A stretch of 45,813 bases of DNA from an uncultured delta proteobacterium (GCA_963815115.1 CAWFFN010000002.1:1-45813); one strand, 5' to 3'. Counted from the stretch's first letter, positions 1,365 through 27,430 are shown. Notes: generated by a model from the sequence alone, not told the origin. Translations and numbers: made by a program.

Positions 1365-1376
1365 AACGGTCTCCTG

Positions 1377-1458
1377 GCGCCTTTCGAGGCGCACACGCTG
1401 CGACCGGCGCCCCCTGCACCGGTCGAATGGGCAAGAGCCTACGACCTTCGGTCGAGGC
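1377..1458 (-). promoter_or_regulatory. Three consecutive hairpins in the leader of the beta-propeller gene
   Basis: GCGCCT-TTCG-AGGCGC (1377-1392), CGACCGG...CCGGTCG (1401-1425) and GCCT(A)CGACC-TTC-GGTCGAGGC (1437-1458). Confidence 0.35.
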
Positions 1459-1645
1459 GGAACTCGGGCCAGTCTCTCACATGGACGGCGTTCCGATAGC
1501 CCTGGAGTCAATGTTCCCCCGGACCGCCCTCGCGCAGCGCGTCGGATGCGGTGAGGGGGGGAAAGTGGGCCTCGGCTCGTCTCAACAGCCACCCTACGCC
1601 CGAGACCGCGGACCGGATGCATTGCAGGCAGGGGCGGCTGCCCGC

Positions 1646-2791
1646 CTATCGCTCTCTCCCGAGGAGTCTCGGGCCAAGGAAGGCGAGCCACGCGGCCGTC
1701 CCCACGAGCCAGGCCGCGGCCGCCGCGCCGAGATGGGGGAAGTAGGTCGCAGTCCAGTCGGCGGTGACGCGCCCCAGCATGGCGAGGATGAGGCCGGTCG
1801 CCATGACGATGATCGCCGCGGGTGATCCTTCGCGCTCCCGATCGAGGTTCAGGTGGCTCAGCGCCACGTGTGTCGCGACCCCGAATGCCAGGACGCCGAA
1901 GCCGCCGATGAAGAGAAGATGGAGCAGGGGGACCCGATAGTCGGGCCAGATGCCCGACAGCGCGAGCCCGGCCGGCGTGAGCCACACCCCGAGCCACACG
2001 AGCCGGCGATGCAGGCCTGGCCGGGCCGGGGGCCGCCACGCGCCACCGCCCAGCGCCAGCCCGATGGCGACCACCGTCGCCCGCAGGAGCGGTCCGACAC
2101 GTTCCCGGCCCGCCTGCTCGAGCAGGAAGCTCACCAGGATCAGGACGCCTGCGACGCCGTAGGCCCCGGCCTTGACGCGTTCGCGCGGCGACGACCCGAG
2201 GTCGGGAGGCGGCGGCGCCCCGGCCATGAGCGGCAGGACGAGTCCGCCGATCCCGACGACGAGGCAGAGAAACACGCCTTGCTCGACGAACAGCTTGCCC
2301 AGCCCGAGGGTCCACGCGGGCGCGCGGAGCGCCGACCACGCGAGGAGGAGCGCGGCGCCCGCGAGGCCGTGCAGCATCGCGAAGGGGATGAGGACGAACG
2401 CAGCCGGCGGCCGGCGACCGCTCGTGCGTCCGACGAAGCGCCGGACGGCGAACCGCAGCAGGAGGAGCAGCAGCGCAAGGTAGCCGATCTCGGCCACCGC
2501 CCATCGCTCGGCCAGGGCGGCCACGGTGGTCGTCACGAGCGCCACGGCGGCGATCCACAGCTCCGCGGCCGTCGCAGAGCTCGTCTGCGTGCGCCGCGGC
2601 AGCGCCGTCATGAGAAACCCGACCGCGAACGCCATCAGGAAGCCCTGGGTCTGCACCAGGCCGTGCAGCATGCAGGAGTAGGTGGCGGTGACCCCGATCG
2701 AGTAGAGGAGCCAGTGGCCGATGCCGACCCAGCCGAGAACCACGCCGAGCAGGAAGAAAGGACGGAACGGCTCGCTTCGCCATGGCAGCAT
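1646..2791 (-). CDS. nnrS: NnrS family membrane protein
   Basis: N-terminal 'EPFRPFFLLG', 'HGLVQTQGFLMAFAVGFLMTALPR' and 'LHLLFIGGFG...VATHVALSH'; polytopic hydrophobic, 381 aa. Confidence 0.85.
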   Translation of the reverse strand: MLPWRSEPFRPFFLLGVVLGWVGIGHWLLYSIGVTATYSCMLHGLVQTQGFLMAFAVGFLMTALPRRTQTSSATAAELWIAAVALVTTTVAALAERWAVAEIGYLALLLLLLRFAVRRFVGRTSGRRPPAAFVLIPFAMLHGLAGAALLLAWSALRAPAWTLGLGKLFVEQGVFLCLVVGIGGLVLPLMAGAPPPPDLGSSPRERVKAGAYGVAGVLILVSFLLEQAGRERVGPLLRATVVAIGLALGGGAWRPPARPGLHRRLVWLGVWLTPAGLALSGIWPDYRVPLLHLLFIGGFGVLAFGVATHVALSHLNLDREREGSPAAIIVMATGLILAMLGRVTADWTATYFPHLGAAAAAWLVGTAAWLAFLGPRLLGRER

Positions 2792-2859
2792 GGCCCGAGC
2801 ACCCAGTTCTCGGACATCGCGTCGCGGACATCAACGCCGCGCGGTCGGGCCTGCCGGGG

Positions 2860-3968
2860 TCAGCCGTTCTGCGTGACGCCGAGGTCGGCGGGCATTTGCG
2901 GGCTCCCTTCCCCTCGAGCGAGCGGGACGCCGTTGCGGGCCAGGAGGTCGCGCAGGGCGATGATCACGGGGTCGACGTCGTGATCGTCGGCCCGCTGAAG
3001 GTCGTAGGCCCGCTGCTCGGCTCGACCGCGGTGCGGTCCTCGGCGAACACGGACTCGGGAACCGCCGGATGACGGCCAGGGACATGAATCAACCCCGGGA
3101 TGGGCGGCTTCTGGATGATCAGCAGGCCCACGCTGATGTGGGTGCGCTGCTCCCGGTCGTAGGGCACGTAGGCGGCCCATAGATTGAACGCGGGGTCGTC
3201 CGTCCGCCGGGTAGAATGCTGAGGTCTGATACGGGTACTGGGTCCGGATCGTCATCAGATCGCCGGCCCTCCGGCCCCGGACGGCCGCCCTCTCTTCCGG
3301 CGTCCGGCCATCAGGAAGCTCGCCCCGCGATCTCCCTTGCCGGCGGTCCTCTTGAACCGGTATCGGGACTCCACCCAACCTTCCCCGTCCGGTGGTCGAG
3401 CAGCGTCGGCTTGATCGTCCCCATGATGCCCCGGTGAAAGAACTGATGGTTCATGTCCATCAGGTTCTCGTGCATGAACGAGTAGTGGCAGTCGACCTTG
3501 CGCCAGAAGTGCATCGTGCGGGCGTTCCGCGAATGGAAGACCGGCGATCGGGGCTTCCACCTCGCGCGCCTTCTCGCGGTCGCCCAGGAACACGAAGACG
3601 TGGCCGTAGTCTTCCTGGCAGGCGTAGCTTCTCACCCCGGCGGGCCGGCCGGCGTCCTCGGGGAGGTAGGGTACCGCCGCCAGCCGGCCGTGCGTTCGGT
3701 AGGTCCAGGCGTGGTAGGCGCACCTCAGGATCTCGCCACAGACGATCCCCTTGTGCAGCGGGAATCGGCGATGCGCGCAGCGATCATCGAGCGCGAAAAC
3801 CTCCCCGCCCTCGGTGCGCGCCAGAACGATCGGCTCGCCGGCGAAGGCCGCGAGGTGCGTCTTGCCGCGTTTCAGGTCCTTCGATCTCGCGAGCGGATAC
3901 CAGAAGTCCGGGTGAATACCGATCCGGCGGAGGTCCGGTTCGTTGCCCTGTCGGTTCTCGGGCTGCAT
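2860..3968 (-). pseudogene. Rieske [2Fe-2S] non-heme iron oxygenase alpha subunit with about five frameshifts (pseudogene or sequencing indels)
   Basis: ATG 3968; Rieske motifs CAHR...CAYHAW are in one frame, the mononuclear Fe motif ENLMDMNHQFFH in a second, and C-terminal pieces (DLMTIRTQYPYQ, FAEDR, EQRAYD) alternate among frames until the stop at 2860. Confidence 0.8.
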
Positions 3969-4122
3969 CCCTAGCCCCCCCTTCGCCATACCCCGCGGAC
4001 CTCGACAGCGAGCGCGCCAGCTCTGTATGCGCTCGTCTCGCCGAGCGTCAAGGCATCGTCGGCGTCGCCTCTCTTGACTCGCCGATTCATCCGCGTCCGA
4101 ACTGGGTCGGGGGGCATCCGCG

Positions 4123-4700
4123 ATGGGTGGCGAACGGTCGATACTGGGCAGCCTGGTCAAGGGAACGCAGCGCGTCGGGTGGGGGCTGGTGATTCTCGGG
4201 CTGGTGGCCGCGCTGGCGCCGATCGCGACCGGCGCCACGCTGGTGGTGGTGATCGGACTCGTGCTGCTCGCGGCTGCAGCGCTGATCGGGTTGTGGGGCT
4301 TGCGTACCCGGGAGACGGGCAGGGGCGACACGGGACTCGTCATCGCGGCACTGGCCGCCATCGCCGGACTCGTGCTGGTGGTCCAGCCCACGGCGGGTCT
4401 CTCGCTCGTCCGTGTCTTGCTGGTCGGCTACTTCCTTCTGAGCGGAGCAGCGGAGATCGCCACGGCGTGGGAGCTGCGCTCATGGGAGGACGACTGGAGC
4501 TCGATGCTGGCGTCCGGCGCCGTTTCCATCCTCGCGGGCGGCGCACTCTGGGCCGACTGGCCGATCTCCGGCGCGCGCGCGATCGGGCTCTTCGTGGGCG
4601 TGAAGCTGGCGTCGGTCAGCTGGGCCGTGGCGCGACTGGCTCGCCGCCTCGATTCCGTGGGCGATCGTGACGGCGGGGATCCGCGACCGCTTCCGTTGAT
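4123..4700 (+). CDS. HdeD/DUF308 family membrane protein (3' end uncertain)
   Basis: About 185 aa with six hydrophobic helices and 'WPISGARAIGLFVGVKL'. The ORF then reads on as implausible sequence antisense to the patatin gene, so the true stop seems lost near 4670-4700. Confidence 0.7.
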
Positions 4701-7525
4701 CCCTTGCCTCACCGATCCTTGCGGATGCCGTCCATCCGTGGACGTCGGCTGGCGCCGCTGCCGGAAGCGATCCCAGGCTTCGCGGATGCGGGCCTTCTTG
4801 TCGCCCTCGAAGTGGAGCGCGGCGACCTTGGCGACGATGTCGCGCCCGCGCCCAGCATCTCGAAGAGATTCGCCGCCGTGGGGCGGAGATCGAGCGTGTA
4901 GTCCGCGGCGAGCGACCCCTGGTCCTCGCCCGCCTTCCACCCGAGCACGAAGACGCCGCGCACCGTGTCCTCGAGCCGTTCCGACGATCTGCGCGGCAGC
5001 CGGTGACGTGACCCAGCAAGTCGAGGCGGACGGGCGCGGACGCGGGTGGCGGCGGGACGACGTTGGCTGCGATCACGAAATGCGCTCCCACCTCGCGGAC
5101 CACCCGCGACGGCACGTTCGCGATGAACGCGCCGTCCGCGATGCGATCGGAGCCCCGGAGCAGGGTCGGGAAGATCGGCGGCAGACTTCCCGACATGCGC
5201 ACACCCCACCCGACGGTGGCATGCGACAGGGCCAAGGGCTCGTGCGTGCCGAGGTTGGTGCCGACGGGGTAGAACGGAATCTCCGTCGTCCTCAGGCAAG
5301 GCGGATCACTCGAGAGGACACCGGCAGCGCGCAACTCGCCGTGTACGAAGGTCTCGATCACCGCGGACGAGAAGGGAGCGACGAACAGGGTCCGATTCAA
5401 TCTTCCGGTGGCGAGCGCCCGGATCGTCGGGCCGATACCAGGGCCCGAAGCCGAGTTCGCGTTCACGAGCAGGTCCACGGCCCGCATGCCGCCGACCGCG
5501 TACAGGCCGCCCACCACGGCACCGAACGACGTGCCCGCGATGTAGTCGATGGGGACGCCCTGCTCCTCCAGGTTCCGCAGGAGTGCCACGTGGGAGAAGC
5601 CCCACGCGCCGCCACCGCCGAGGGCCAGGCCCACCGTGTGCCGGTTGACGACCCGCGCCAGCCTGGCGAAGGCGCGCCCTAGCGGGGGGCGTGGTCCGTC
5701 CGGGCGCAGGAGCGCACCGAGGTCGCCCCGGTCGAACGTCTCGGCGCCGGCCGGGTCGTCGGGAACGCGGACCACCCGCCGCGGTCCCTGGACGGACTCG
5801 TGCCACAGCTCCTTGCCCGGGTCGAACCCGAGATACCATTCGATCGCCCGGCGGACGGGGTCGGGTGCGCCTTCGATCGCGCCGCCGAAGAGCCAGGCGA
5901 GCGGTACCCGCTTCGCGCGCTCCTCCTCGAGAGTCAGGTACGCGGGCGTCATGCGGTACACCCACGTCACGTGTTCGGGCTCTGCCGGCGGATATCCGGC
6001 GTCCGCGTCCTCGCAGAGGTAGAACACCTCACCGCAGCGACCATGGAGTCGCTCGAGCACCTGACTCGCGAGACCGTGGGCATCGCGCTCGCTTCCGGCC
6101 ACGACGATGTGGCTCACACCCTGCTCCGCCTCCAAGGCGTCGATGAGATCCTCCACCCGGTCCGCATCGGTGGCCTCCGGCCACACGACCTTCAACCCCG
6201 GTGGCCAGCCGGCCCTCGCGGGTGGCTCCAGAACGTGGCAGGTGAGCTCGGGTCGACGCCCGTGCGCGCGCCGTTTGCGCGGGCCCTCCTGGACGCACAC
6301 CTGCTCCGTCGTGATCGTGCAGCCACACGCGTCCCAGCGCGCGGCGAAATTCTTCGGTCCCTCCAGATCGATCACCTTGACGGTGCGTCCCCCCGAGCGC
6401 GCGAGCTCGGGCGGTGCCGTAGGCCAGGGCCGTCGCGCCGAGCCCGGGCCGAGCGGCATGGAAGCTGACGATCGTCGGCATCGGGTCCGCAATGCCGGCC
6501 GGATCGTCGGAGAGCATGCGCTTCACGCGGGACCACACGGCCGCGCGGTCGTCGAGAACCCAGCGCAGCGCGTACCAGTCGAGCTGCAGCACCTGCGCGT
6601 CGGGTGTGAGCCGGACCTCGGTTCGGCGAGGAGGCTCGACGACCTTCACGTCCTCCTGGGATGGATTTCGCAGCTCGGCGTCCATCACCAGCCCCTCGTG
6701 GCCGAAGAGGTCTCCGGGGCGCAGCGTGGCGACGTACTCGTTGCGTCCGGTGGTGCTCCCGGGGACCCGCAACGTGGCTTCGCCACGGAGCAGCAGCGCC
6801 GCCCGGGTGCTGGGCCTGCCTGCGGCAAGGTAGGAACCGACCTCGCTCCCCGGCGAAACGATGGCACCGAGCTGCAGGAGATATTCGCGGTCGGCCGGAT
6901 TCAGCAGGCGCAACAACGGATTCTTTCCCACGCACCGCATAATCTCGCTGCGCCGGGCGAAACGGATCGCGACGTGGTGCTCGACGAAACGCCGAAAGTC
7001 GGGATGGCTCTTCATGAGCGCGAGCGCGACGTCGAGTGCGATGCGCTGCGTACGCACGTTGCTCAACGCCTGGGCTTCGAAGCGGCCGCTGGGCCAGCCC
7101 ACCCGGCGATCGGCCTCACGAAGCAGGTTCGGCAGACCGATCCATTGCCCGGGCCGATACTGCGCGAGCACACGCCGGCGCTCCTCCCCGCCGCTCCGGA
7201 ACGTGGCCACGAGCCTGGCCCGACCTGCGACGAGGAGATGGATCGCTGCGTCGTTGCCCTCGCCCAGCTCGGGGAACACCGTGCCCGGCTCGAGATGCAG
7301 GTCGGGGTTCACCGGCGTCAGCGCGTCCAGGAGTGCCGCGACCGTCGTCTCGCCGAGGAGCGGATGAAGTTCCAGGGCCGCCGCCGTGATTTGCCGGTCG
7401 TCCTGGTAGAAGTCGTCGGGGTGGAGTGCGGCGTCGTACTGGCGCGTCGCGCCGGGAGACACGCTCACGCGCTGGAGGTACTCGGGGAGCTCGAAGGCCC
7501 ACGGATCGATCGGCGCCGGATTCAT
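4700..7525 (-). pseudogene. Two cNMP-binding domains + degenerate ParA/MinD-like segment + patatin-like phospholipase, split by frameshifts
   Basis: The 7525-6410 frame has cNMP-like motifs (HLLVAGRARL...PGQWIGL; LLLRGEATL...LRPGDLFGHEGL). After a shift near 6410 come GLALGGGGAWG, GTSFG (nucleophile Ser) and DGAFIANVP. Further shifts lie near 4990 and 4850; the 3' end is approximate. Confidence 0.75.
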
Positions 7526-7639
7526 CCTGGGGTGCTCGTCGCGGCCCGACTATACACGGCGGTACGCGACGTCGGGAAGGCGAGACGCCCTCGCTTCGGG
7601 TTGACCACGCAGTCTACCCGGCGGTAGAGCAAGAGCGCT

Positions 7640-8632
7640 GTGGCTGCTCCCAGAAAGACCGCGCTCTCGGTGCGCATCGCTGGGACCGGCAGCGTGATGC
7701 CCGGGCGGCCCGTGACGACTGCCGAGCTGGTCGCGCAGGTGGCGGGCCCGTGGGACGCGACCCGCGTGACGGAACGGACCGGCATCGCCGCCCGCCACTT
7801 CGTCGCGCCCGGCACCACCGCCGCCGTGCTCGGGGCGGCAGCTCTGCGCAGAGCCCTCGCGAGCGCTCGCATGCCGCCGGAGGCGGTCAGGCGCATCATC
7901 TTCGTCGACTCGCTCGGTGGCGACGCGCTCATTCCCGCGACGGCCAACGACGTCATGGCGGCGCTCGAGATCCGGGGCGCCTGCGACTGCTTCGATCTGA
8001 ACAACGCCTGCCTGGGATTCCTCTCGGCGTTCGACGTCGCGGCGCGCGGCGTGGCCACGGGACAGGAGGTCGTCGCCATCGTCGTCGCCGAGCTCGGGTC
8101 ACGCTTCATCACGCCCGACGATCCGCGCCCGTTCTTCGTCTTCGGGGATGGAGCCGCGGCCGTCGTCCTGACCGCGGGCGAGAACGGCGAGGGCATTCTC
8201 GGCTCCGTGCTGCGAAATCGGCCGGGCAATGCCGGCGGGGTGGTGCTCGCGCACCCCGGGCACACGGGAGCACGCGAGACGATTCGCTTCACGAAGCCGA
8301 ACGCCCGGATGCTCGATCTCGCCCTCGACCTCCTGCGTGACAGCACGGACGCGGTGCTCGCCGAAGCGGGGCTGCGCCTCGACGACGTCGAGTGGATCCT
8401 GCCGCATCAGCCGAACGGCGTCATGCTGGACGCGTTCGTCCGCGTCCTAGGCGTCGATGCGGGGCGGGTCGTGCCGGTCGTCCGCGAAACCGGCAGCGTG
8501 GGCGCCGCGTCGATCCCGATCAGCCTCGATCGCCTGATGTCCTCGGGCCGCGTCCGCTCCGGCGATCGTATCCTCATGATCGGCGTGGGCGCCGGCCTCT
8601 CCTCCGGGGCGACGCTCCTTCGAGCGGGGTGA
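7640..8632 (+). CDS. 3-oxoacyl-ACP synthase III (FabH)-like enzyme with atypical Cys-His-Ser triad
   Basis: RTGIAARH, DLNNACLGF (Cys), FGDGAAAVVL, PHQPN (His) and TGSVGAASIP where FabH has GNTSAAS. Confidence 0.9.
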   Translation: MAAPRKTALSVRIAGTGSVMPGRPVTTAELVAQVAGPWDATRVTERTGIAARHFVAPGTTAAVLGAAALRRALASARMPPEAVRRIIFVDSLGGDALIPATANDVMAALEIRGACDCFDLNNACLGFLSAFDVAARGVATGQEVVAIVVAELGSRFITPDDPRPFFVFGDGAAAVVLTAGENGEGILGSVLRNRPGNAGGVVLAHPGHTGARETIRFTKPNARMLDLALDLLRDSTDAVLAEAGLRLDDVEWILPHQPNGVMLDAFVRVLGVDAGRVVPVVRETGSVGAASIPISLDRLMSSGRVRSGDRILMIGVGAGLSSGATLLRAG

Positions 8633-9417
8633 TGGCGCCGAGTCGCCTTCCGCTCCGCCTCTGGCTCGGCTACTGGCGAGTGCTCCAGCGCTACCACCGC
8701 TACACCGTGAACGGCCTCGAGCACCTCGACGGCTCGCGCGCCGCGCTGATCGTCGGATACCACGGCCGCCCGTTCGCCTACGACATGTGCATGCTCACGG
8801 TCGCAATCTACGATCGCCTGGGCTACCTCCCCCACGGCGTCGTGCACCGGGGCATGAAGCACATTCCGATCCTGCGATGGCTGGTCGATGGGCTGGGCTT
8901 CGTCACCGGCGACGACGACGACGTCCGCCGAGCCGTGGCGCACGGCGAGCACATCGTCGTGACCCCCGGCGGCGCGCGCGAGGGCTGCCGCGGCTTGCGG
9001 AGCCGCTATCGCGTCGACTGGGGGGGCGGGGTCGGCTATCTGCGGCTCGCGCTCCGCCACGGGCTGTCCATCGTGCCGGTGGCGGCGGCGGGAGCCGACG
9101 GCGCCTACATCGGGCTGAACGATGCCGATCGGCTCGGGCGGCGGCTCGGTCTTCCCCGCGACTGGACGTGGATTCCCTGGCTCGGCCTCGGTCCGCTCGG
9201 CCCCTACCCCCTGTCGCCACCGTTCCCCGTCCGCATGCGGCAGCTCGTCGGCGAGCCCATCGATCCCCGGAGCGACGGACGGATATCGCTCGACGACCGC
9301 GCGGGTCTCCTTCGCCTGCACGCCCGCGTCCAGCGAGCCGTGCAGGAGCTGCTGGACCGCGCGCGGGGGACACGGCAGATCGGCATGCCCGAGGCGTCGA
9401 GACACGATGCCGCGTGA
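8632..9417 (+). CDS. Lysophospholipid/diacylglycerol acyltransferase (PlsC/DGAT2-like)
   Basis: ATG 8632 overlaps the upstream TGA; motifs GLEHL, YHGRPFAYD, TPGGARE and GYLRLALRHGLSIVPVA. Confidence 0.85.
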   Translation: MAPSRLPLRLWLGYWRVLQRYHRYTVNGLEHLDGSRAALIVGYHGRPFAYDMCMLTVAIYDRLGYLPHGVVHRGMKHIPILRWLVDGLGFVTGDDDDVRRAVAHGEHIVVTPGGAREGCRGLRSRYRVDWGGGVGYLRLALRHGLSIVPVAAAGADGAYIGLNDADRLGRRLGLPRDWTWIPWLGLGPLGPYPLSPPFPVRMRQLVGEPIDPRSDGRISLDDRAGLLRLHARVQRAVQELLDRARGTRQIGMPEASRHDAA

Positions 9418-10237
9418 AGCCGTCGGCGAGGGGCAGCGATGGGCGGTGATCCTCGGCGCCTCGACCGGAACGGGCGCGGCCATCGCCCGAGCGGTGGCGC
9501 GCGACCCCGGCCTGCACGTCTTCGGTGTCCATCGGGGGCACTTCCCGGACGAGGCCCGGGTGCTCGAGGACGAGATACGCGCCGTCGGCCGTCGAGTGTC
9601 GTTGCTGGTCGCCGATGCGGGTGATGCGGACGGCGCGCTCGCCGGTGCCGCGCACGTCCGCGAGGTGGCCGGGCCGCGCAGCGTGGGACTCATGGTGCAC
9701 GCCCTCAGCGGCGCCTCGCTCGGGCATTTTCTCGCCGTCGATGGCGCGGGACTGCATCCGAAGCAGTTCGAGAAGACGTTCAACTACCTGGCGCATTCCT
9801 TCGTGTACTGGGCGCGGGCGCTGCACGATCTCGACCTTCTCGCTCCGGGCGCCCAGATACTCGGCCTGACCAACCTCCTGCACGACTCTCTCCTCCACAA
9901 CTGCGGCCTCATCGCCGCGGCGAAAGCCGCCCTCCAGATGTACGTGCGCCACCTCGCGCTCGAGCTCGGTCCGCACGGCCATCGCGTCAACCTCCTCAAG
10001 TTCGGCTCCGTCGTGACGCCGGCGCTGGCACGGATGCTCGGGCCGGCAGGCGTCGAACGGCTCGAGTCGTCCGTGCGCGAGCTGATTCCTGCCGGTCGAT
10101 CGTGCACGTTCGAGGACGTCGGGCGCATCGTCGCGTTCCTCGCCCGCGACGAGGGGGAATGGTTCAACGGCGCGACGATCGACTACACCGGTGGGATGAC
10201 GCTCCGGCTCCTGGACGTCATCCTGCGGCCCGAGTGA
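9407..10237 (+). CDS. SDR oxidoreductase, enoyl-ACP reductase FabL/FabI-like, with C-x6-K in place of Y-x6-K
   Basis: ATG 9407 overlaps the previous gene; ILGASTGTG, NCGLIAAAKAAL, LALELGPHGHRVN, VVTPAL and NGATIDYTGG. Confidence 0.85.
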   Translation: MPREAVGEGQRWAVILGASTGTGAAIARAVARDPGLHVFGVHRGHFPDEARVLEDEIRAVGRRVSLLVADAGDADGALAGAAHVREVAGPRSVGLMVHALSGASLGHFLAVDGAGLHPKQFEKTFNYLAHSFVYWARALHDLDLLAPGAQILGLTNLLHDSLLHNCGLIAAAKAALQMYVRHLALELGPHGHRVNLLKFGSVVTPALARMLGPAGVERLESSVRELIPAGRSCTFEDVGRIVAFLARDEGEWFNGATIDYTGGMTLRLLDVILRPE

Positions 10238-10247
10238 GGTGCACGCC

Positions 10248-10721
10248 ATGGGCAAGATCGACGATGCGCTCAAGCAGCCGCAGCTCGATACGCTGCGGAA
10301 GGAGTATTCGAACCCGGACGCCGTCCAGATCCTGAGCAGGGGGATCCCGGCCCTCGACGACCGGACCGCGACGTACATCGACGCGATCCGGAGCGCGTTC
10401 TACGACGGCACCGCCATGCGGCCCAAGGACCGCGAGCGCTGCCTCATCGCGATCCTCTCGTCGCGCGACGCCGGCCTCAACCTCGCGATCCACGTCTACC
10501 TCGGGTTGATGCGGGGCCTCTCGCCCGGAGAGATCGCGGACATCATCTTCCTCGGCGGCATCTACACGGGAGTGGATCGCATGAGCGACGGCCTCGCTGC
10601 GGAGATGAAGACGCTCACGGTGCTCGCGCAGGTCGCGACTCCGCCGGGGAATTGCAAGGTGGCGGACGTCATGAAGGCGCTGCACGATGCCTTCACCGCG
10701 CCGCTCCCACCGAGTCCGTGA
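10248..10721 (+). CDS. Carboxymuconolactone decarboxylase/AhpD-like protein (no CxxC)
   Basis: MRPKDRERCLIAIL...LAIHVYLGLMRGLSPGEIADII...IYTGV; GAGGT RBS before ATG 10248. Confidence 0.75.
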   Translation: MGKIDDALKQPQLDTLRKEYSNPDAVQILSRGIPALDDRTATYIDAIRSAFYDGTAMRPKDRERCLIAILSSRDAGLNLAIHVYLGLMRGLSPGEIADIIFLGGIYTGVDRMSDGLAAEMKTLTVLAQVATPPGNCKVADVMKALHDAFTAPLPPSP

Positions 10722-10736
10722 ACGGCCATGCCCCGC

Positions 10737-11594
10737 TCACGCGCCGGCCCGCGGCATGCAGAACGTGAGGCAGTAGTAGTAGCGACTCACCTGCTCCGAG
10801 ACCACGGCGCTGGCTCCGGGAGGCAGGAGGGCGAGCGGGCTGCCCGGCGCGGCCGTGTAGAATGTGAGCGCACGGAACACCAGGCGATGGAACGCCGAAC
10901 GACGACTCCCGGGGTCGAGCTGCTCGTCGACGACCACGATGGGCGTATCGGGCCGGGCCACACGAGCCATCTCCGCCAGCCCCCGGCGCGGATCACCGTA
11001 TCCGCCGATCCCGCCGACGTGGAAGACGCGGTCGAAGGAGGCGTCCGCGAACGGGAGCGCGTGCGCGTCGGCGGCGAGCAGACGCATCCGGCGGCCCGGA
11101 TGGCGAGCGAGCCGTCGGCGGCAGCGAGCGAGCATCCCGTCGCTCAGGTCGAGCCCCCAGAGCTCCACGTCGAGCTCGCGCGGCAGATCGCGGTCGAGGA
11201 GGGACAGGTTCGCGCCTGCCCCGACGCCGACCTCGAGGATGCGGAGCTGGCGGCCGTCGGCGGAGGGCCGGAGATCGCCGAGGGCGAGACGCGTCATGTA
11301 GCCGTCGCGGGCGGCGCGCTCGGACATTCCCTGCAGCGGAGGAAAGAGCGCACGGGTTACCGGGTCGTGCAGGGGGGCGAACCAGTCGTAGAGCACCCGC
11401 ATGAAGCGATCGGCGCGCTGGACGCGGTCCTCGTCGACCAGCCGCGGCAGACCGGCACACACTGGCCAACCGCGCCGGCAGCGCCCGCAACGCAAGGCGC
11501 CGGTGTCGAGCTCGTCTCCCGCGAGCTGTCCTTCGAATTCGAGTGGCCCGCGGCATGCGGGGCATGCGAGGGTGCCGACGTCCGCAGGCGTCAT
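10737..11594 (-). CDS. Class I SAM-dependent methyltransferase with N-terminal Trm112-like Zn module
   Basis: LACPACRGPL...LRCGRC...GLPRL; ILEVGVGAG, GLDLSDGML, ALPFADASFDRV. Confidence 0.85.
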   Translation of the reverse strand: MTPADVGTLACPACRGPLEFEGQLAGDELDTGALRCGRCRRGWPVCAGLPRLVDEDRVQRADRFMRVLYDWFAPLHDPVTRALFPPLQGMSERAARDGYMTRLALGDLRPSADGRQLRILEVGVGAGANLSLLDRDLPRELDVELWGLDLSDGMLARCRRRLARHPGRRMRLLAADAHALPFADASFDRVFHVGGIGGYGDPRRGLAEMARVARPDTPIVVVDEQLDPGSRRSAFHRLVFRALTFYTAAPGSPLALLPPGASAVVSEQVSRYYYCLTFCMPRAGA

Positions 11595-11697
11595 CGACCT
11601 GGCCGCTCACATATCGACGTCGACCCCGCTGCGCAAAGACTCCCGCTCGCGCGGTCGAAGCTGGTGACGCCCGTCGCGCCGCGGAGGAGAGCGACGC

Positions 11698-14600
11698 ATG
11701 CGCTGCGCGGCATGTAGCCACGAGAACCTCCCCGGCGCCCGCTTCTGCAGCGGGTGCGGCGCCGGTCTGGAGCGAATCTGTGCGGGCTGCGGCCATGCAA
11801 GCGGCGCCGGCGCGCAGTTCTGCAGCGCCTGTGGCCGGAGCATGGCCTCCGGGGTGGCAGCGGTGGAGAACCGGGCGCCGGCGACGGATACGCTGGTCGG
11901 GGAGCGACGGCAGCTGACGGTGCTCTTCTGCGACGTCGTCGGATCGACGGATCTCGCGGCACGTCTCGACCCGGAGGAATGGCACTCGATCAGTGCGCGC
12001 TATCACCGCTGCGGCGCCGAGGCCGTCGAGCGCTTCGGAGGCCACGTCGCCAAGTTCCTCGGAGACGGTTTCCTCACGTACTTCGGCTACCCGCTCGCCT
12101 ACGACGACGGCCCGGAGCGCGGCACACGGGCTGGCATCGCCATCCTCGATGCACTCGTCCCGCTGAACGAGCGTCTCGAGAAGGAGCACGGAGCCCGGCT
12201 GGCAGTCCGGGTCGGTATCCACACCGGCGACGTGGTGATCGGCGAGGGCGGCGGGAAGGACACCGAGGTGTTCGGCGAAGCGGTGCACCTGGCAGCGCGT
12301 GTACAGCAGCTCGCCGGGTCGAACGAGATCCTCATCAGCGAAACGACGTGCCGCCTCGTGTCCGGGCTCTTCGTGATGGAGGAGCGCGGCGCCCATGCGC
12401 TCCGCGGCATCCCGAAGCCCGTCGCCCTCTACCGGGTGCTGCAGCCGACCGGCGCGCGAGGTCGCTTGCAGACTTCCGGCTTGCGCGGGCTGACGCCGTT
12501 CGTGGGACGCGAGGCGGAACGTTCGCTGCTGCTCAGCCGCTGGGAACGGGCGCAGGAGGGCGAGGGCCAGGTCGTGCTGGTCAGCGGCGATCCAGGGATC
12601 GGAAAGTCGCGCCTTCTGCAGGTGTTCCGGGACGACATCGCCGGGCATGCCCAGACGTGGGTCGAGTGCGCCGCCTCCTCCTGTCACACGAGCACTCCGT
12701 TCTTCTGCGTGATCGACATGATCCAGCAAGGTCTCGCGAGGCAGTGCGGCGAGTCGCTGGAGCAGCGGCTCATCCTCCTCGAGCGGGCGCTGACCACGAC
12801 CGGTCTCGATCCCGCAGAGGGCGTGCCGCTGCTGGCTGGCCTGATCGGACTGTCACTGCCCCCCGGGCGGTATCCGCCGCTCGCGGGCTCGCCGGCGCAG
12901 CAGCGCGAGCGCCTGATGGCGACGCTCGCCCGCTGGCTCCTCGCGGCGGCCGCGATCCAGCCGGCGGTGCTGGTCGTCGAGGACCTGATGTGGGCCGACC
13001 CCTCGACGATCGAGCTGCTCGAGCTCCTCGGGCAGCAGGCGGCGACGGCGCCGGTGCTGTTGCTGTACACGGCCCGCCCGGAGTTTCGATGCACGTGGCC
13101 AGCGCGTTCGAACCTCACGGTCGTGACCCTGAACCGGCTCGGGCAGCACCACGTGCGACAGATGATCGCGAGCCGCAGTGACTCGACCGCCCTGCCGGAC
13201 CTCGTCGACACGCTGGTCGCACGGAGCGACGGCGTGCCGCTGTTCGCAGAGGAGCTGACGAGTCTGGTGACGGACGCGGGACGCCTGCCGCAAAGCGAGG
13301 TGCCGGCGACGCTCCAGGATCTCCTGACGGCGCGGCTCGATCGCCTCGGGCCGGCACGGCGCATCGCGCAGATCGGGGCGGCGATCGGCCGCGAGTTTTC
13401 GTACCGTCTGCTGGAGGTGATCGCCGGATCGACGGTGCCGGATCTCCACCAGGCCCTGGCCCGTCTGACGGACGCCGAGCTGCTGTACGCGCGGGGGTTC
13501 CCTCCCGATGCAGCCTACGTCTTCAAGCACGCGCTCATTCGCGACGCGGCGTACGGCACGCTCCTGAAGAGCCGCCGCCGCGAGCTGCACGTCGCCATCG
13601 CGCGAGCCCTCGCCGACGGCTTTCCGGACACCGTGGAAGCGATGCCGGAGCTGCTCGCTCACCACTTCACCGAAGCGGGCGAGCTCGAGACGGCATGGCG
13701 AGAGTGGCAGCGAGCCGGCGAGCTGGCCGTCGCACGCTCGGCGCTGCTCGAAGCCGCCGGTCACTTCAGGACGGGACTGGAGCTGCTCGCTACCCTCCCC
13801 GACGCGACCGGACGGGTGCAGCAGGCGTTGAACCTGCAGGTTCTTCTGGGCCAGGCGCTGGCGGCGACCAAGGGCTATGGGGCACGCGACGTCACGGACG
13901 CGTTCGCCCGCGCGCGCGAGCTCGCCCGGAAGGCGGGCGGGACGCCGGAGCTCCTGTCGGTGCTGTTCGGTCTCTGGGCCTCGATCGCCGGACAGGGAGA
14001 GCTCGGTGTTGCCCGCACCCTCGCGGACGAGCTGCTGGTGGTGGCGGAGCGTGCCGGGATGCGTACCGAGATGGTCTGGGGTCACCTGGCCCACGGCATC
14101 AACCACTACTCGCTCGGCGATCACCCGGCGGCACGGGAGCACCTGGCGCGCGTCGTCGCCCTGTACCGGGAGGTCGAGCGACCGGCCAGCCCGTCGGATC
14201 CGGGCGTCATGGCGCTCAGCTACGCGACGGTCAACTCGTGGACGCTCGGGCTCGTCGACGAATCGCGCGAGCGAAGCCGCGAGTCGCTCGAGCTGGCGCA
14301 GCACCTGCAGAATCCGCTCGCGGTCGCGTGGGCGCGCTTCTTCACGGGTGCGCTCCACGTGTTCTTGAGGGAGCCACGGCGCGCGCTCGAGCACGTCGAC
14401 CCGCTCATCAGTCTCTCCACCGAGCACGGGTTCGCGCTCTTCGTGGGTCTGGCCACGATCGTCCGCGGTGCCGCCCTCTCCGAGGACGGCCGGCACGACG
14501 AGGGCGTCGGAGAGCTCCGGAAGGGGCTCGCCGTGTATCGCACCACCGGCCAGCGGGTCTCGCACCGTCTGTACCTCTGCTGGTTGGCGCAGGCGTACGC

Positions 14601-14970
14601 CGCCGCCGGTGCGCTCGAGGAGGCCGCCGCGACGGTCGACGAGGCCCTCGGCATGCCCACCGACGAGCGCCTGTTCGAGCCCGAGCTGCACCGGCTGCGC
14701 GCCGAGCTGCTGGCACGGCAGAGCGCAGAGCCGGCCCGCGTGGAGGCGAGCTTTCGCGAGGCGATCGAGCTCGCGCATCGGCAGGCGGCTCGTTCCCTCG
14801 AGCTGCGCGCGGCCACGAGCCATGCCCGGTGGTTGCGGATCGCCGGGCGCGGGGCCGAGGGGCGGCGGCACCTCGAGGATGCGTGTGAGTGGTTCTCCGC
14901 CGCCACCGACACGCGGGATCTGGCCGACGCGAGAACGGTGCTGCGAGAGCTCACAGGTCACGGCCCGTGA
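11698..14970 (+). CDS. Double zinc ribbon - class III nucleotidyl cyclase - AAA/STAND ATPase - TPR-like protein
   Basis: Four CxxC pairs; ERRQLTVLFCDVVGST, KFLGDG, VRVGIHTG; TPFVGRE, GDPGIGKS, LVVEDLMWAD, YVFKHALIRDAAY; helical C-terminus ending ARSLELRAA. Confidence 0.93.
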   Translation: MRCAACSHENLPGARFCSGCGAGLERICAGCGHASGAGAQFCSACGRSMASGVAAVENRAPATDTLVGERRQLTVLFCDVVGSTDLAARLDPEEWHSISARYHRCGAEAVERFGGHVAKFLGDGFLTYFGYPLAYDDGPERGTRAGIAILDALVPLNERLEKEHGARLAVRVGIHTGDVVIGEGGGKDTEVFGEAVHLAARVQQLAGSNEILISETTCRLVSGLFVMEERGAHALRGIPKPVALYRVLQPTGARGRLQTSGLRGLTPFVGREAERSLLLSRWERAQEGEGQVVLVSGDPGIGKSRLLQVFRDDIAGHAQTWVECAASSCHTSTPFFCVIDMIQQGLARQCGESLEQRLILLERALTTTGLDPAEGVPLLAGLIGLSLPPGRYPPLAGSPAQQRERLMATLARWLLAAAAIQPAVLVVEDLMWADPSTIELLELLGQQAATAPVLLLYTARPEFRCTWPARSNLTVVTLNRLGQHHVRQMIASRSDSTALPDLVDTLVARSDGVPLFAEELTSLVTDAGRLPQSEVPATLQDLLTARLDRLGPARRIAQIGAAIGREFSYRLLEVIAGSTVPDLHQALARLTDAELLYARGFPPDAAYVFKHALIRDAAYGTLLKSRRRELHVAIARALADGFPDTVEAMPELLAHHFTEAGELETAWREWQRAGELAVARSALLEAAGHFRTGLELLATLPDATGRVQQALNLQVLLGQALAATKGYGARDVTDAFARARELARKAGGTPELLSVLFGLWASIAGQGELGVARTLADELLVVAERAGMRTEMVWGHLAHGINHYSLGDHPAAREHLARVVALYREVERPASPSDPGVMALSYATVNSWTLGLVDESRERSRESLELAQHLQNPLAVAWARFFTGALHVFLREPRRALEHVDPLISLSTEHGFALFVGLATIVRGAALSEDGRHDEGVGELRKGLAVYRTTGQRVSHRLYLCWLAQAYAAAGALEEAAATVDEALGMPTDERLFEPELHRLRAELLARQSAEPARVEASFREAIELAHRQAARSLELRAATSHARWLRIAGRGAEGRRHLEDACEWFSAATDTRDLADARTVLRELTGHGP

Positions 14971-14989
14971 CGGGCGATCGCCGGGATAC

Positions 14990-15032
14990 ATCACCTCGAC
15001 AGTATGAGGTGATAGTTATAGCATCGCCTCAT
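14990..15032 (+). promoter_or_regulatory. Probable autoregulatory operator with three half-sites
   Basis: ATCACCTC-N8-GAGGTGAT (14990-15013) is a perfect inverted repeat. ATGAGGTGAT-N9-ATCGCCTCAT (15004-15032) matches 9/10 and overlaps a TATAGC -10-like hexamer and the start codon. Confidence 0.6.
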
Positions 15033-16029
15033 GGCCGAACGTGTCGAGCGCGTGCGCCGGCTGCTCGGACGCCTGGGCGAGGTCTCGAACCACGATGTCG
15101 CGCGCGCGCTGCGGGTGTCGGCCGCCACCACGCACCGGCTGCTGCGGGCGCTCGTGGAGGGAGGTGTCCTCGAGCGGCACGGGCGGGGCCCTGCAGCGCG
15201 TTACCGCCTGCGCAGCGTCAGACGTCGGTTCCGCCTGGTGGGTTTGGAGGAGGACCGCGCGTGGGAGCAGGTCGCGACGGACATTGCCCGCATCCGACCG
15301 CTCGCAGCCGACGACTCGCAGAGCCTCCGCTATGCCGCCAGCGAAATACTCAACAATGCCATCGAGCATTCACGAGGGACCGCGGTGCGGGTCGGCGTGT
15401 CGTTCGAGGCGGCAGGCATGACCGTCACTACGATCGAGGATGACGGGGTCGGGGTGTTCCGTCGTCTGTGCGACGATTTCGACTTCCGTTCCCCTCACGA
15501 TGCCATCGTGCAGCTCGAGAAGGGCAAGCTCACGAGCGACCCGGAGCACCATAGCGGCGAGGGCATCTTCTTCTCCTCGAAAGTTGTTTCGCGCTTTCGC
15601 CTGGAGAGCCAGGGTGTGGCGTGGATCGTCGACAATCTCACGCCCGACACGGCCATCGGGCCGAGCGACGTTCGGCGTGGAACCCGGGTCACGCTGACGG
15701 TTGCGGAGGGCCGTGTACCTCGCCTGCAGGAGGTGTTCCGCACCTACACCACCCCCGAGTCGCTGGGATTCGTGCGGACCCGAACCACCGTGAAGCTGAG
15801 CGCACTGGGGACCGGCCTGATCTCCCGGTCGGAGGCGCGCCGAGTGCTCCAGCGCGTGACGGAGTTCACGCACGTCACGCTCGATTTCTCGGGTGTCGAG
15901 GTGGTGGGGCAGGGCTTCTGCGACGAGGTCTTCCGGGTCTTCGCGCGCCGCCACCCGGAGATCGCCTTCGAACCCGTGGGCATGAACGACGCGGTGGCAT
16001 TCATGGTGGCCCGGGCGCGCGCGAGGTGA
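15031..16029 (+). CDS. wHTH + HATPase-like + STAS-like (DUF4325) protein
   Basis: VARALRVSAATTHRLLRALV (HTH); SEILNNAIEHS, IEDDGVG, HSGEGIFFSSK; LISRSEARR, LDFSGVEVVGQGFCDEVFRVF. Confidence 0.85.
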   Translation: MAERVERVRRLLGRLGEVSNHDVARALRVSAATTHRLLRALVEGGVLERHGRGPAARYRLRSVRRRFRLVGLEEDRAWEQVATDIARIRPLAADDSQSLRYAASEILNNAIEHSRGTAVRVGVSFEAAGMTVTTIEDDGVGVFRRLCDDFDFRSPHDAIVQLEKGKLTSDPEHHSGEGIFFSSKVVSRFRLESQGVAWIVDNLTPDTAIGPSDVRRGTRVTLTVAEGRVPRLQEVFRTYTTPESLGFVRTRTTVKLSALGTGLISRSEARRVLQRVTEFTHVTLDFSGVEVVGQGFCDEVFRVFARRHPEIAFEPVGMNDAVAFMVARARAR

Positions 16030-16790: not shown

Positions 16791-16959
16791 GTCCGTCCTC
16801 CTCCTTATGGTTCGAGACGTCCGACCAGTTCTTTCCTTCTCTTGGTCATCGTGCCGGATGCCCTTCGCTTCGCCGTCCCCGCAGAAGGCAACGTTCCGCT
16901 GCACGTCCGGGCTGTCGCGGACATCGGCCACGTCCACCGCGGTGATGAAACCAACGTGA

Positions 16960-17775
16960 CTAGCGGACGCAGCGGAAGCCGATGGCGTCGGACGAGCCGG
17001 ACGGCACGTTGTCGCCAGCGACCGCGAGCGGTCCGGCACCCGCCCCGTCGAACCAGCCGCCGCCGCGCAGCAGCGCCCCGGGTTCACCTGTGGTGTCCGC
17101 ACCAGCCAGGCACTGGATGTCGCCCGTCGGGCTGACGCCAGCGCTCCAGCTGCCGCACACCCTCGACCTCGGCACCCACTCGGCCACCCACTCGAACAGG
17201 TTGCCGACCATGTCGAAGGCACCAAGCGACGAGACGCAGCTGCTGCGAGATCCCGTGAGCTCCACCGACATCGTGCTGGATGTGTTGCAATCCGTCGTGC
17301 CGTTGTCCGGCCCCGGGTCGGGCGTCCCCGCCACCGCCGCTTGCCACTCCGCACTGGACGGCAGCCGCTTGCCTGCGTAGGTGCACGCCGCCTGCGCCTG
17401 GAACCACGTGAGGAACGCCGACGGTGTCACGCCCGGCAGGCTCACCGCGTAGATGTCGTTGGTGCAGTTCTGCCCGCCGGCGGCGCACGGCGCGTAGTCG
17501 TCGAACGCGGTGCCGAGCAGCGTCGCACCGCCGGCCGTCAACAGCGCGGCCGTTGCCTTGCCCTGCTGAATCTTCGCCACCAACCCCTTGTTGGTCGTCG
17601 TCGGGTTCGGCACGCGCCACACGCTCGCCTCGTACTTGTCCATGCACCCCGCGCCCGACACCACCGCGTCCACCGGGCACTTCGTGAGTGGTCCCCCTGG
17701 CGGGCTGGCGGCCCCGGCCGCGCCCGCCAGCAGCAGCGCTGCCGCCACCGTAATTCCGTTCGAGATGTGTCGCAT
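16960..17775 (-). CDS. Secreted FGE/SUMF1-type C-type-lectin-fold (Mtd-like) protein, copy 1
   Basis: Signal peptide; CMDKYEAS, TWFQAQAAC, GKRLPSSAEW, GAFDMVGNLFEWV, LLRGG...IGFRCVR. Lacks the FGE catalytic CxxxxC. Confidence 0.85.
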   Translation of the reverse strand: MRHISNGITVAAALLLAGAAGAASPPGGPLTKCPVDAVVSGAGCMDKYEASVWRVPNPTTTNKGLVAKIQQGKATAALLTAGGATLLGTAFDDYAPCAAGGQNCTNDIYAVSLPGVTPSAFLTWFQAQAACTYAGKRLPSSAEWQAAVAGTPDPGPDNGTTDCNTSSTMSVELTGSRSSCVSSLGAFDMVGNLFEWVAEWVPRSRVCGSWSAGVSPTGDIQCLAGADTTGEPGALLRGGGWFDGAGAGPLAVAGDNVPSGSSDAIGFRCVR

Positions 17776-17971
17776 GACTCTCTCCTTTTGTTTTGCTCGT
17801 CGTGCCGGATGCCCTCCGCCTCGCCGTCGCCGCAGAGGCGATGTTCCGGCGGCACGTCCGGGTTGGGGTGTTCCGCGACCGTTCGCGAATGTTTCGCGAA
17901 AGGGCGGGCTTTACGTCAGCCGTCAGCTGCGGGCATGGGCCGCGTCCACCGCGGTGATGAGACCAACGTGA

Positions 17972-18781
17972 CTAGCGGACGCAGCGGAAGCCGATGAAGA
18001 CGCGCGAGCTGGACGGCACGCCGGAGCCAACCACTGCGAGCGGGCCAGCCGACGAACCGTTGCGGAAGTCGCCGCCCCGCAGCAGCGCACCGGGACCGCC
18101 TGCCGTCGAACTCGCCCCAAAGAGGCACATCAAGTCGTCGCTCAAGCCTCCCCAGTTCGAGCAGTCCGTCGAGAGCGGCACCCAGTCCGCCACCCACTCG
18201 TCCAGGTTGCCCACCATGTCGAAGGCCCCACGCGCCGATACGCAGGCGCTGCGCGATCCGGTGCTGGCCACGATGTCGGTCGCGCTGTTGCAGTCCGTCA
18301 TCCGATTGTCCGGCCCGGGGTCCGGCGTCCCGTTCGCCGCCACCTGCCACTCCGCGCTCGTCGGCAGCCGCTTGCCGGCATTGGCGCACGCTTCCTCCGC
18401 CTGGAACCACGTGATGTGGGCCGACGGCGTCACGCCCGGCAGGCTCACCGCGTAGATGTCGTCGATGCAGTTCTGTCCGCTGGCGGAGCATGGCGCGTAG
18501 TCGTCACCCGCGGTGCCGAGCTGCGTCGCACCGCTTGCCGTCAAGACCGCGGCCGTCGCCTTGCCCTTCTGAATTCTCATCACCAACCCCGCGTTGGTCG
18601 TCGTCGGGTTCGGCACCCGCCACACGCTCGCTTCGTACCTGTCCATGCACCCGGCGCCCGACACCACCGCGTCCACCGGGCACTTCGTGAGTGGGCCGCT
18701 CGGTGGGCCGACGGCCCCGGCCGCGCCCGCCAGCAGCACCAACGCTGCCGCTACCGCAATTTCTGTCGCCATGTGTCTCAT
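17972..18781 (-). CDS. Secreted FGE/SUMF1-type C-type-lectin-fold (Mtd-like) protein, copy 2
   Basis: ATG 18781 after GGAGG; same motifs as copy 1 (CMDRYEAS, GKRLPTSAEW, DMVGNLDEWV, IGFRCVR). Confidence 0.85.
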   Translation of the reverse strand: MRHMATEIAVAAALVLLAGAAGAVGPPSGPLTKCPVDAVVSGAGCMDRYEASVWRVPNPTTTNAGLVMRIQKGKATAAVLTASGATQLGTAGDDYAPCSASGQNCIDDIYAVSLPGVTPSAHITWFQAEEACANAGKRLPTSAEWQVAANGTPDPGPDNRMTDCNSATDIVASTGSRSACVSARGAFDMVGNLDEWVADWVPLSTDCSNWGGLSDDLMCLFGASSTAGGPGALLRGGDFRNGSSAGPLAVVGSGVPSSSRVFIGFRCVR

Positions 18782-27134: not shown

Positions 27135-27430
27135 GTGTCCTTTCGTCACCCGAGCGGGGGCGTCCGGGTGTTGCTGGCAGCGGATGAGCGTAGCTGGCGG
27201 AATAGCGGGGATCCAGTGCCACGTCGATGTCCGTGTGGGAGGCGCCGTGACTCGCGGCGCCGGCACTTCGTGGCGGTGCGGGAGCCGTCGCGCGTCGCGC
27301 GAACGTGGGCCGGTAGGCAGACGAGCTGGGCCACCGCATCGATCCCGAGGCCCGTACTGGGACGCCAAGGCGCCGCATGGTACTCCGATGCGACCTGGAG
27401 CCGGCCAGTGCCGGGCGTGTCGCCCCTGTG

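Follow-up and report, generated by a model that had tools for sequence, protein, structure and literature searches.

What could a lipid operon make if two of its enzymes each lack a residue that defines their families? The locus that raises this question lies in an uncultured delta proteobacterium, on contig CAWFFN010000002.1 of assembly GCA_963815115.1; the whole contig of 45,813 nucleotides was analyzed and is called the window here. At positions 7640 to 10721 it carries four coupled genes for a β-ketoacyl synthase III (KAS III)-like enzyme, an acyltransferase, a short-chain dehydrogenase/reductase (SDR) and a small CMD-like protein. An original prediction, made from the sequence alone, held that in the KAS III-like enzyme serine takes the place of FabH's catalytic asparagine, that the SDR has cysteine in place of its catalytic tyrosine, and that the operon may represent a new pathway.

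We find that serine is the usual residue across the KAS III-like family, that tyrosine is absent across the SDR family, and that the genes travel with a patatin-like phospholipase in many genomes. A specialized acyl-lipid pathway of some kind is probable. More tentatively, and with rather less than even confidence, we favor the reading that the cluster carries out accessory acyl-lipid synthesis or remodeling that is independent of acyl carrier protein (ACP) and controlled by signals.

A serine at the catalytic asparagine position is the rule in the KAS III-like family

The first gene (7640 to 8632, plus strand) encodes a KAS III (FabH)-like thiolase-fold enzyme with the signatures C-D-x-F-D-L-N-N-A-C and H-Q-P-N-G. 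It matches Pfam ACP_syn_III at 59.6 bits and ACP_syn_III_C at 90.5 bits, and falls under all NCBIfam cut-offs for FabH (179.2 versus 292.1 and 196.7 versus 249 bits, tested against TIGR00747/PRK09352). HMMER alignment puts Cys124 and His256 in register with the FabH triad. Codon 286, AGC at 8495 to 8497 on the plus strand, pairs with the Asn of FabH's G-N-T-S-A-A-S in structures 4ryb and 4dfe, just as had been predicted; the spatial placement of Ser286, and hence the putative triad Cys124-His256-Ser286, rests on this alignment to solved FabH structures. The enzyme thus resembles FabH in having both Pfam domains, the cysteine, the histidine within H-Q-x-N and a glycine-rich C-terminal loop, with a best solved match at E 1.6e-42. 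It differs in its serine, its sub-cut-off score, the loss of basic residues C-terminal to H-Q-A-N and its lack of a fab gene context.

Serine occupied the position in all 120 of the best 120 of 441 database (metagenomic) homologues, which share 51-95% identity with the window protein. Among 96 distinct sequences taken from DNA loci of species-representative genomes, 90 had serine, three asparagine, and one each cysteine, threonine and alanine. The 90 serines are encoded by AGC (82), AGT (5), TCC (2) and TCG (1), and G-S-x-G-A-A-S, whose conservation the original prediction had proposed as a check, is the usual form of the family. Beyond the family, relatives that are mostly from Streptomyces and share 31-37% identity have asparagine. 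The nearest of these asparagine-bearing relatives sit in unrelated, secondary-metabolite-like contexts that give no functional clue (a second KAS III-like gene, a hydrolase, a Zn-dehydrogenase, an aminotransferase, a SnoaL-like protein, an amine oxidase).

Three members of the family itself carry asparagine (loci L157, L167 and L176), and all three retain the complete order KAS III-like enzyme, acyltransferase, SDR, CMD, methyltransferase. In a FastTree phylogeny, computed without support values and with an outgroup that included two partial high-scoring segment pairs from the family, the trio is nested within a serine-bearing clade. If this placement is right, asparagine would have re-arisen from serine by one transition while the pathway continued. 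Since the asparagine forms are nested among serine forms with full synteny, we reasoned that Ser286 may serve as asparagine does, as a hydrogen-bond donor towards the oxygen of the thioester or enolate, a role that cysteine and threonine could fill as well.

The motif around the histidine bears on the substrate. FabH has H-Q-A-N-R-R where the window enzyme has H-Q-P-N-G-V, so that the basic residues, which we take to be involved in ACP docking, are replaced by an invariant glycine (Gly260) and a variable residue. A Pfam scan of 30 window proteins found neither a PP-binding nor an Acyl_transf_1 domain, the marks of ACP and FabD, and together with the ORF coordinates it agrees with the original prediction of a coupled four-gene set lacking both. 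The absence of both, the basic residues and an ACP gene, points to coenzyme A (CoA) rather than ACP substrates for the enzyme.

Not every KAS III-fold enzyme with an altered triad condenses acyl chains. CerJ, ChlB3/ChlB6 and DpsC share with the window enzyme the KAS III fold, a third residue other than asparagine and the use of non-ACP thioesters; the acyltransferase triad of the ChlB3 type is Cys-His-Asp, in ChlB3 itself Cys113-His296-Asp301 (PMC9573744). The window enzyme might likewise be an acyltransferase of this kind, moving an acyl group from acyl-CoA to Cys124 and on to an oxygen or nitrogen nucleophile, and the cluster would then do no more than attach two acyl groups to a lipid. Any of S, N, C, T and A can stand at position 286, as expected if only the cysteine and histidine matter, and neither an ACP gene nor a malonyl transferase gene lies nearby. 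The third residue is, however, serine and not aspartate, and CerJ, ChlB and DpsC differ further in their geometry, in a serine nucleophile in some cases, and in belonging to polyketide clusters; no polyketide synthase or sugar context occurs among the window genes. Of the 54 PDB sequence matches at E ≤ 1e-10, true FabH is the best, at 1.6e-42, and the names are 3-oxoacyl/β-ketoacyl synthase III, ketosynthase, CorB, PQS enzyme and 3-oxopimeloyl-ACP synthase; CerJ, DpsC and ChlB3 are not among them. By sequence, then, the enzyme is much closer to true FabH than to the CerJ/DpsC/ChlB acyltransferases, and plain acyl transfer would leave the adjoining reductase hard to account for. We consider an acyltransferase of this type unlikely.

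Condensation is favored over acyl transfer because the 54 PDB names are of the condensing type, because a reductase gene is adjacent and because almost every residue seen at position 286 can donate a hydrogen bond. Whether decarboxylation accompanies it is a separate matter. The original prediction, which had envisaged a non-decarboxylative or transfer reaction, is overstated on this point, given the tolerance of asparagine and the FabH-like rather than CerJ-like sequence; non-decarboxylative chemistry is possible.

The SDR family lacks the catalytic tyrosine

The third gene (9407 to 10237, plus strand) encodes a FabI/FabL-like SDR that matches Pfam adh_short_C2 at 101 bits and scores far below the NCBIfam cut-offs for FabL (80.2 versus 328 bits) and FabI (56 versus 337 bits). 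Its codon 166 is TGC (9902 to 9904, plus strand), and alignment by HMMER to E. coli FabI chains pairs Cys166 with Tyr156, the tyrosine of Y-x6-K, as the original prediction had placed it. The same alignment pairs Asn156 with FabI Tyr146 and Lys173 with Lys163.

Across 83 distinct relatives, position 166 is threonine in 35, cysteine in 17, leucine in 14, glycine in 8, phenylalanine in 8 and alanine in one, and never tyrosine; Asn156 and Lys173 are kept in all 83. Because cysteine occurs in only 17 of these sequences, C-x6-K is no motif, and the proposal of a conserved, catalytic cysteine has to be given up. As far as these alignments tell, the true feature of the enzyme is the family-wide absence of tyrosine. 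The likeness to FabI, FabL and InhA lies in the adh_short_C2 family, in a best PDB sequence match to E. coli FabI (7e-14) and in the retained lysine of Y-x6-K; the difference is that both FabI tyrosines are missing in 83 of 83 relatives, one replaced by an invariant asparagine and the other by a variable residue.

Residues invariant in 32 SDR sequences are G17, G21, G23, H42, R43, N156 and K173, of which H42-R43 form a His-Arg pair after strand 2. Retention of this pair and of the glycine-rich dinucleotide motif makes a functional NADP(H) site likely. The structural model (pLDDT 88.3) has an ordinary SDR fold and matches SDR structures at template-modeling (TM) scores of about 0.8, with FabI and peroxisomal dienoyl-CoA reductase among many equal matches. 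Dienoyl-CoA reductases of the SDR type (DECR1, pDCR) reduce carbon-carbon double bonds without the usual Tyr-Ser pair. DECR1 (1w6u, by sequence, E 3.3e-12) and pDCR (4fc6, by fold) both appear among the matches, no closer than many other SDRs. In our search for literature on reductases without the tyrosine, only a mutant study of InhA turned up; it gives a retained kcat of 1.8% for Y158F and 0.16% for Y158S (PMC6222099). A lineage living without the tyrosine therefore needs another device or another chemistry.

The window genome also encodes a tyrosine-bearing FabL-like paralogue, on contig C9, at 35% identity.

Each of the two unusual codons is one transition away from the canonical one, and the assembly has evident indel errors, which raises the question of whether both arose through sequencing error or as mutations private to this genome. 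The region has a second copy at the end of contig C12 (892435 to 908230), which is 98.75% identical over 15.8 kb (window 1 to 15778) and has the same codons at both sites. The original prediction had named close homologues with asparagine and tyrosine as the finding that would reveal such an origin; the homologues found have serine in 120 of 120 database sequences and at 90 of 96 loci, and tyrosine in 0 of 83 SDRs. Homologues and the C12 copy together rule this explanation out for practical purposes. Contigs of four soil/peat runs that align to the window are relatives at 90-99% identity. Among the 40 listed of 344 differences, 9904 C>T keeps the cysteine and none falls at 8495 to 8497 or 9902 to 9903; with the 304 further differences unlisted, these contigs add little and neither confirm nor deny bases 8495 to 8497.

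The conserved unit is wider than the four-gene operon

The four plus-strand ORFs are gapless, overlapping or abutting. The acyltransferase ATG at 8632 shares one base with the stop of the KAS III-like gene (TGATG), the SDR ATG at 9407 lies within an 11-base overlap with the acyltransferase gene, and the CMD gene begins with GTG at 10239 or ATG at 10248. The window DNA has a G+C content of about 70%. Pfam and NCBIfam back the four names at the superfamily level only.

Two genome scans yielded 52 unique family loci, among which we counted an acyltransferase in 44, a patatin in 44, an SDR in 42, a methyltransferase in 28, a large AAA_16-TPR (STAND) protein in 22 and a CMD gene in 19; many of these loci end at contig ends, and the STAND count applies at the chosen threshold. 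In the usual order, the genes for patatin, KAS III-like enzyme, acyltransferase and SDR lie on one strand and converge on those for the large protein, the methyltransferase and in some cases CMD on the opposite strand. The conserved unit is therefore wider than four genes and consists of a patatin with a long N-terminal extension, the KAS III-like enzyme, the PlsC/DGAT2-like acyltransferase and the SDR; the methyltransferase, CMD and the kinase- or cyclase-AAA-TPR protein often join this core. The constant gene set includes no carrier protein, ligase, dehydratase or transporter. The synteny that the original prediction had asked about extends across dozens of genomes, yet its four-gene unit needs redrawing: the KAS III-like enzyme, acyltransferase and SDR stand, CMD turns out to be the least conserved partner (19 of 52), patatin belongs to the core (44 of 52), and the methyltransferase and STAND genes are added.

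A scan for C-D-x-F-D-L-N-N-A together with H-Q-P-N-G matched 263 stretches, 231 of which encode a relative. Named carriers among the 80 listed belong to Corallococcus, Myxococcus, Pyxidicoccus, Hyalangium, Archangium, Citreicoccus, Sorangium, Minicystis, Byssovorax and Enhygromyxa. The other listed carriers are metagenome-assembled genomes labelled as Nannocystaceae, Binatia, Xenobia, gammaproteobacterial and others. At E ≤ 1e-60, 31 of 151 sampled genomes from the order of Corallococcus had a match and none of 400 other sampled genomes from the window's own phylum did, so the cluster is rare in that phylum. Among public sequencing runs no RNA run was listed, and none contained more than 0.25 of the sampled words.

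Some genomes have two diverged copies of the cluster, including the metagenome-assembled genome MFD04944.bin.1.34 (L061, identical with L005, and L074, identical with L001) and Corallococcus exercitus SDU142 (L050 and L062). The KAS III-like enzymes of the MFD04944.bin.1.34 copies are 59% and 85% identical to that of the window, and one of the copies has no detectable SDR.

The cluster is probably accessory to housekeeping fatty acid synthesis

The Ser-type enzyme and the SDR could in principle be the housekeeping FabH and enoyl reductase of the window organism. In its genome, 100% complete by marker genes, nothing reaches the fabH cut-off of 292.1 bits and the Ser-type enzyme is the best match at 178.8 bits; the closest relative (G001) likewise has nothing at the cut-off and the Ser-type enzyme as best match. 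The fabD and plsX genes of the window genome lie on other contigs with no KAS III match beside them. The other carriers weigh the opposite way. In three of five of these (G002, Corallococcus sicarius and Minicystis rosea) a canonical FabH above the NCBIfam cut-off exists beside the Ser-type gene. The Ser-type gene is not next to fabD, fabG or acpP and is instead constantly linked to patatin and acyltransferase genes, and its product lacks the basic residues to which we assigned ACP docking. A housekeeping role is thus highly improbable, and because of the canonical FabH in three of five carriers and the tyrosine-bearing FabL-like paralogue in the window genome, the cluster is, on the gene content of these genomes, best described as accessory.

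The next-best fabH match in the window genome is an adjacent pair of KAS III-like genes on contig C7 (910496 to 912413), the first of which has Cys-His-Asn.

The acyltransferase and its putative tailoring neighbors

The second gene (8632 to 9417, plus strand) encodes a glycerolipid-type acyltransferase of the LPLAT superfamily that falls between the PlsC-like and DGAT2/MGAT-like enzymes. It matches Pfam Acyltransferase (PF01553) at 28.4 bits (cut-off 23) and no NCBIfam family; its match to Pfam DAGAT (PF03982) stays below the gathering threshold (15.8 versus 22 bits, E 0.0067). Invariant residues include Y43-H44...D51, an H-x6-D arrangement, and P112-G113...E117 within P-G-G-x-x-E. The latter motif and a stretch reading G-Y-L-R-L-A-L-R-H-G-L-x-I-V-P resemble DGAT2 motifs. 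The model (pLDDT 89.7) finds PlsC (5KYM), PatA, LpxM and GPAT as top PDB folds, with 5KYM first at E 1.1e-5 and TM 0.52-0.56. The protein is thus like PlsC, DGAT2 and MGAT in its Pfam family and best fold match; it differs in having H-x6-D rather than H-x4-D, in a TM score of only about 0.5 and in the lack of an NCBIfam family.

DGAT2 and PNPLA enzymes form a synthesis and lipolysis pair in eukaryotes, and myxobacteria form lipid bodies. By analogy, the acyltransferase and patatin might make and break triacylglycerol or wax, with the KAS III-like enzyme and SDR supplying chains. The weak DAGAT match fits such storage-lipid turnover, as do the nearest ESM Atlas clusters, which carry PF01553 and PF03982 (the latter in 47-66% of members), and patatin is the most constant neighbor. 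The acyltransferase folds are nevertheless of the PlsC, PatA and GPAT types, the window genes and the scanned neighboring ORFs yielded no gene for storage lipids or lipid droplets, and a storage role would leave a dedicated Ser-type KAS III and a tyrosine-less SDR unexplained. We judge storage-lipid turnover a poor prospect.

The fourth gene (10239 to 10721, plus strand) encodes a CMD/AhpD-like small protein, a facultative member of the cluster that matches Pfam CMD at 26.8 bits (cut-off 23); residues present in at least 90% of its sequences include R65-E66-R67, H85 and Y87. Convergent with the operon lies a gene (10737 to 11594, minus strand) for an S-adenosylmethionine-dependent methyltransferase with an N-terminal Trm112-like zinc ribbon (Pfam Methyltransf_25/11 and Trm112p).

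Patatin and STAND proteins point to regulation by signals

Divergent from the operon, as the original prediction had noted, is the patatin gene, which proves to be one broken half of a fusion. The cyclic-nucleotide (cNMP)-binding N-terminal part occupies 6412 to 7525 (minus strand; Pfam cNMP_binding, 33.1 bits) and the phospholipase part 4480 to 6408 (minus strand; Pfam Patatin, 59.7 bits). The translation contains G-T-S-F-G and D-G-A, which fit the G-x-S-x-G and D-G-A/G motifs of the patatin dyad. In the window the cNMP-binding and patatin ORFs do not share a frame. With two additional bases at about 6411, the C12 copy joins both parts into one ORF of 938 amino acids, and the 85%-identical relative L001 also has both in one frame. 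Relative to C12, indels at 4670 to 5002 put the C-terminal end of the window patatin out of frame below about 5000.

A long N-terminal extension is common to all the patatin ORFs tested, with cNMP_binding detected in 10 of 23 and, in a separate scan, in L075. The succession of cNMP-binding domain(s) and patatin in one chain recalls PNPLA6 (neuropathy target esterase), whose architecture we take to be of this form. The cluster protein differs from PNPLA6 in being bacterial and soluble-looking, and in 13 of the 23 ORFs the extension has no cNMP_binding match.

In L075 (56 to 6066, Corallococcus coralloides), the cNMP-patatin gene is immediately preceded, on its own strand, by genes for an RND pump, a membrane-fusion protein and an outer-membrane factor, and these adjoining pump genes hint at export of a product in that lineage.

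The large neighboring gene of the window (11698 to 14970, plus strand) encodes a STAND-type signaling protein with a zinc ribbon, a class III nucleotidyl cyclase, AAA_16 and TPR. It had been spotted by all-against-all ORF clustering, which served only that end, being confounded by shadow ORFs in DNA of such G+C content. Most other loci have a Ser/Thr kinase instead of the cyclase: the domain before AAA_16 is a kinase in five of eight proteins and a class III cyclase in two, and the eighth is cut by the end of its locus. The pairing of a long-extension, often cNMP-binding patatin with sensor kinases or cyclases suggests a signal-driven change in membrane composition.

Directly 3' of the cyclase-AAA-TPR gene, at 15031 to 16026 (plus strand), lies a gene for a protein with an IclR-type helix-turn-helix, a histidine-kinase-like ATPase and a STAS-like DUF4325 domain.

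A cyclase beside a cNMP-binding phospholipase could also belong to a conflict or defense module, in which a STAND sensor would activate its cyclase, the cyclic nucleotide made would open the cNMP-binding patatin to destroy the membrane, and the lipid genes would be accessory or self-protective. The STAND architecture is present, Pycsar cyclase models recognize the cyclase (best E 4.7e-17), and a phospholipase effector model gives a weak hit to the patatin (E 4.4e-4). Against this, PADLOC models match none of the KAS III-like enzyme, acyltransferase, SDR, CMD and cNMP proteins, the PADLOC matches that exist are generic ones to cyclase, phospholipase and methyltransferase, and similarity among class III cyclases is itself generic. 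The neighboring STAND-type proteins, moreover, have a kinase and not a cyclase in five of eight cases, and the biosynthetic genes are the constant part of the cluster. Defense is a very unlikely function here.

A possible pathway and the points against it

The constant gene set pairs a phospholipase with a condensing-type enzyme, a reductase and a glycerolipid acyltransferase, which is why we picture a chain that is drawn from the CoA pool, modified and put on a glycerolipid. Under the favored reading of ACP-independent, signal-controlled lipid synthesis or remodeling, the KAS III-like enzyme would take an acyl group from acyl-CoA onto Cys124 without ACP. A Claisen-type condensation would follow, with Ser286, or in rare members Asn, Cys or Thr, hydrogen-bonding the thioester or enolate oxygen, and with decarboxylation left either way. 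The NADPH-type SDR would then reduce the keto or enoyl product, and the acyltransferase would esterify the modified chain onto a lyso-glycerolipid or a diacylglycerol-like acceptor. Patatin would supply the acceptor or clear the old chain in an exchange like the Lands cycle; methyltransferase and CMD, where present, would tailor the product, and the STAND kinase or cyclase, with a cyclic nucleotide acting on patatin, would switch the module. This exact sequence of steps is somewhat less likely than not. A narrower version is doubtful: a widespread, ACP-free bacterial pathway to an undescribed membrane lipid, with thiolase- or OleA-like, non-decarboxylative condensation of CoA thioesters by a Cys-His-Ser enzyme, reduction by the tyrosine-less SDR through a mechanism foreign to FabI-type enzymes, installation of the product on glycerolipid by a DGAT2-like enzyme and switching by STAND kinases or cyclases and a cyclic-nucleotide-gated patatin.

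Several points weigh against the favored reading. Every chemical step in it is inferred. One family member has Ala286, at odds with a strict need for a hydrogen-bond donor at this position, and no SDR lies within the 3-kb flank of that locus; the placement of the asparagine trio, from which the role of Ser286 was argued, holds if a tree without support values and with an imperfect outgroup is right. The SDR does without the residue that provides about 98% of kcat in InhA (PMC6222099); its chemistry may be of another kind, or it may not be a catalyst at all. The acyltransferase has H-x6-D and not the H-x4-D of PlsC, its fold matches are weak (TM 0.52) and the acceptor assigned to it is conjectural. 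Many loci have no methyltransferase, CMD or STAND gene, so these may be neighbors rather than pathway members. The patatin gene is frameshifted in the window contig, as are the acyltransferase and methyltransferase genes in C12, possibly through assembly errors or decay.

Taken as a whole, the cluster is by sequence most like a set of FabH, reductase and PlsC, yet fails the tests that define FabH, FabI/FabL and PlsC. No Cys-His-Ser ketosynthase and no such gene set was described in the literature searched, which left subscription journals and about 1.7 million PMC articles outside its scope. The cluster is apparently undescribed, and its product is probably a lipid that nobody has described. 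If the favored reading is true, many soil Myxococcota and Binatia, cultivable genera included, would hold an unstudied lipid pathway, and the genetically tractable myxobacteria among the carriers would allow it to be studied. Nature would also have run two experiments on mechanism, with a KAS III lineage in which the asparagine was replaced and a FabI-like lineage living without its tyrosine.

Second copy and other features of the window

The C12 copy has frame breaks of its own, in the acyltransferase and methyltransferase genes, for which reason assembly error is as likely as decay to account for the broken patatin of the window. The two copies have different frameshifts, and a true duplication seems less likely than an origin as strain variants or duplicates created by assembly.

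The last 7-11 kb of the 45.8-kb contig match both ends of contig C4 at 98-99.7%. Two DDE transposase genes at 35102 to 37943 (plus strand) have near-identical copies elsewhere, in three places on contig C5 at 99.8-100%, and these repeats probably explain the assembly break. On the minus strand at 16917 to 18781 are two tandem genes for FGE-sulfatase-domain proteins, with about 80% DNA identity over 870 bases. Near them are a sulfotransferase gene (22684 to 23646), a sulfatase gene (24747 to 27458), a LysR regulator and an ABC exporter, and together these genes may form a sulfation-related group.

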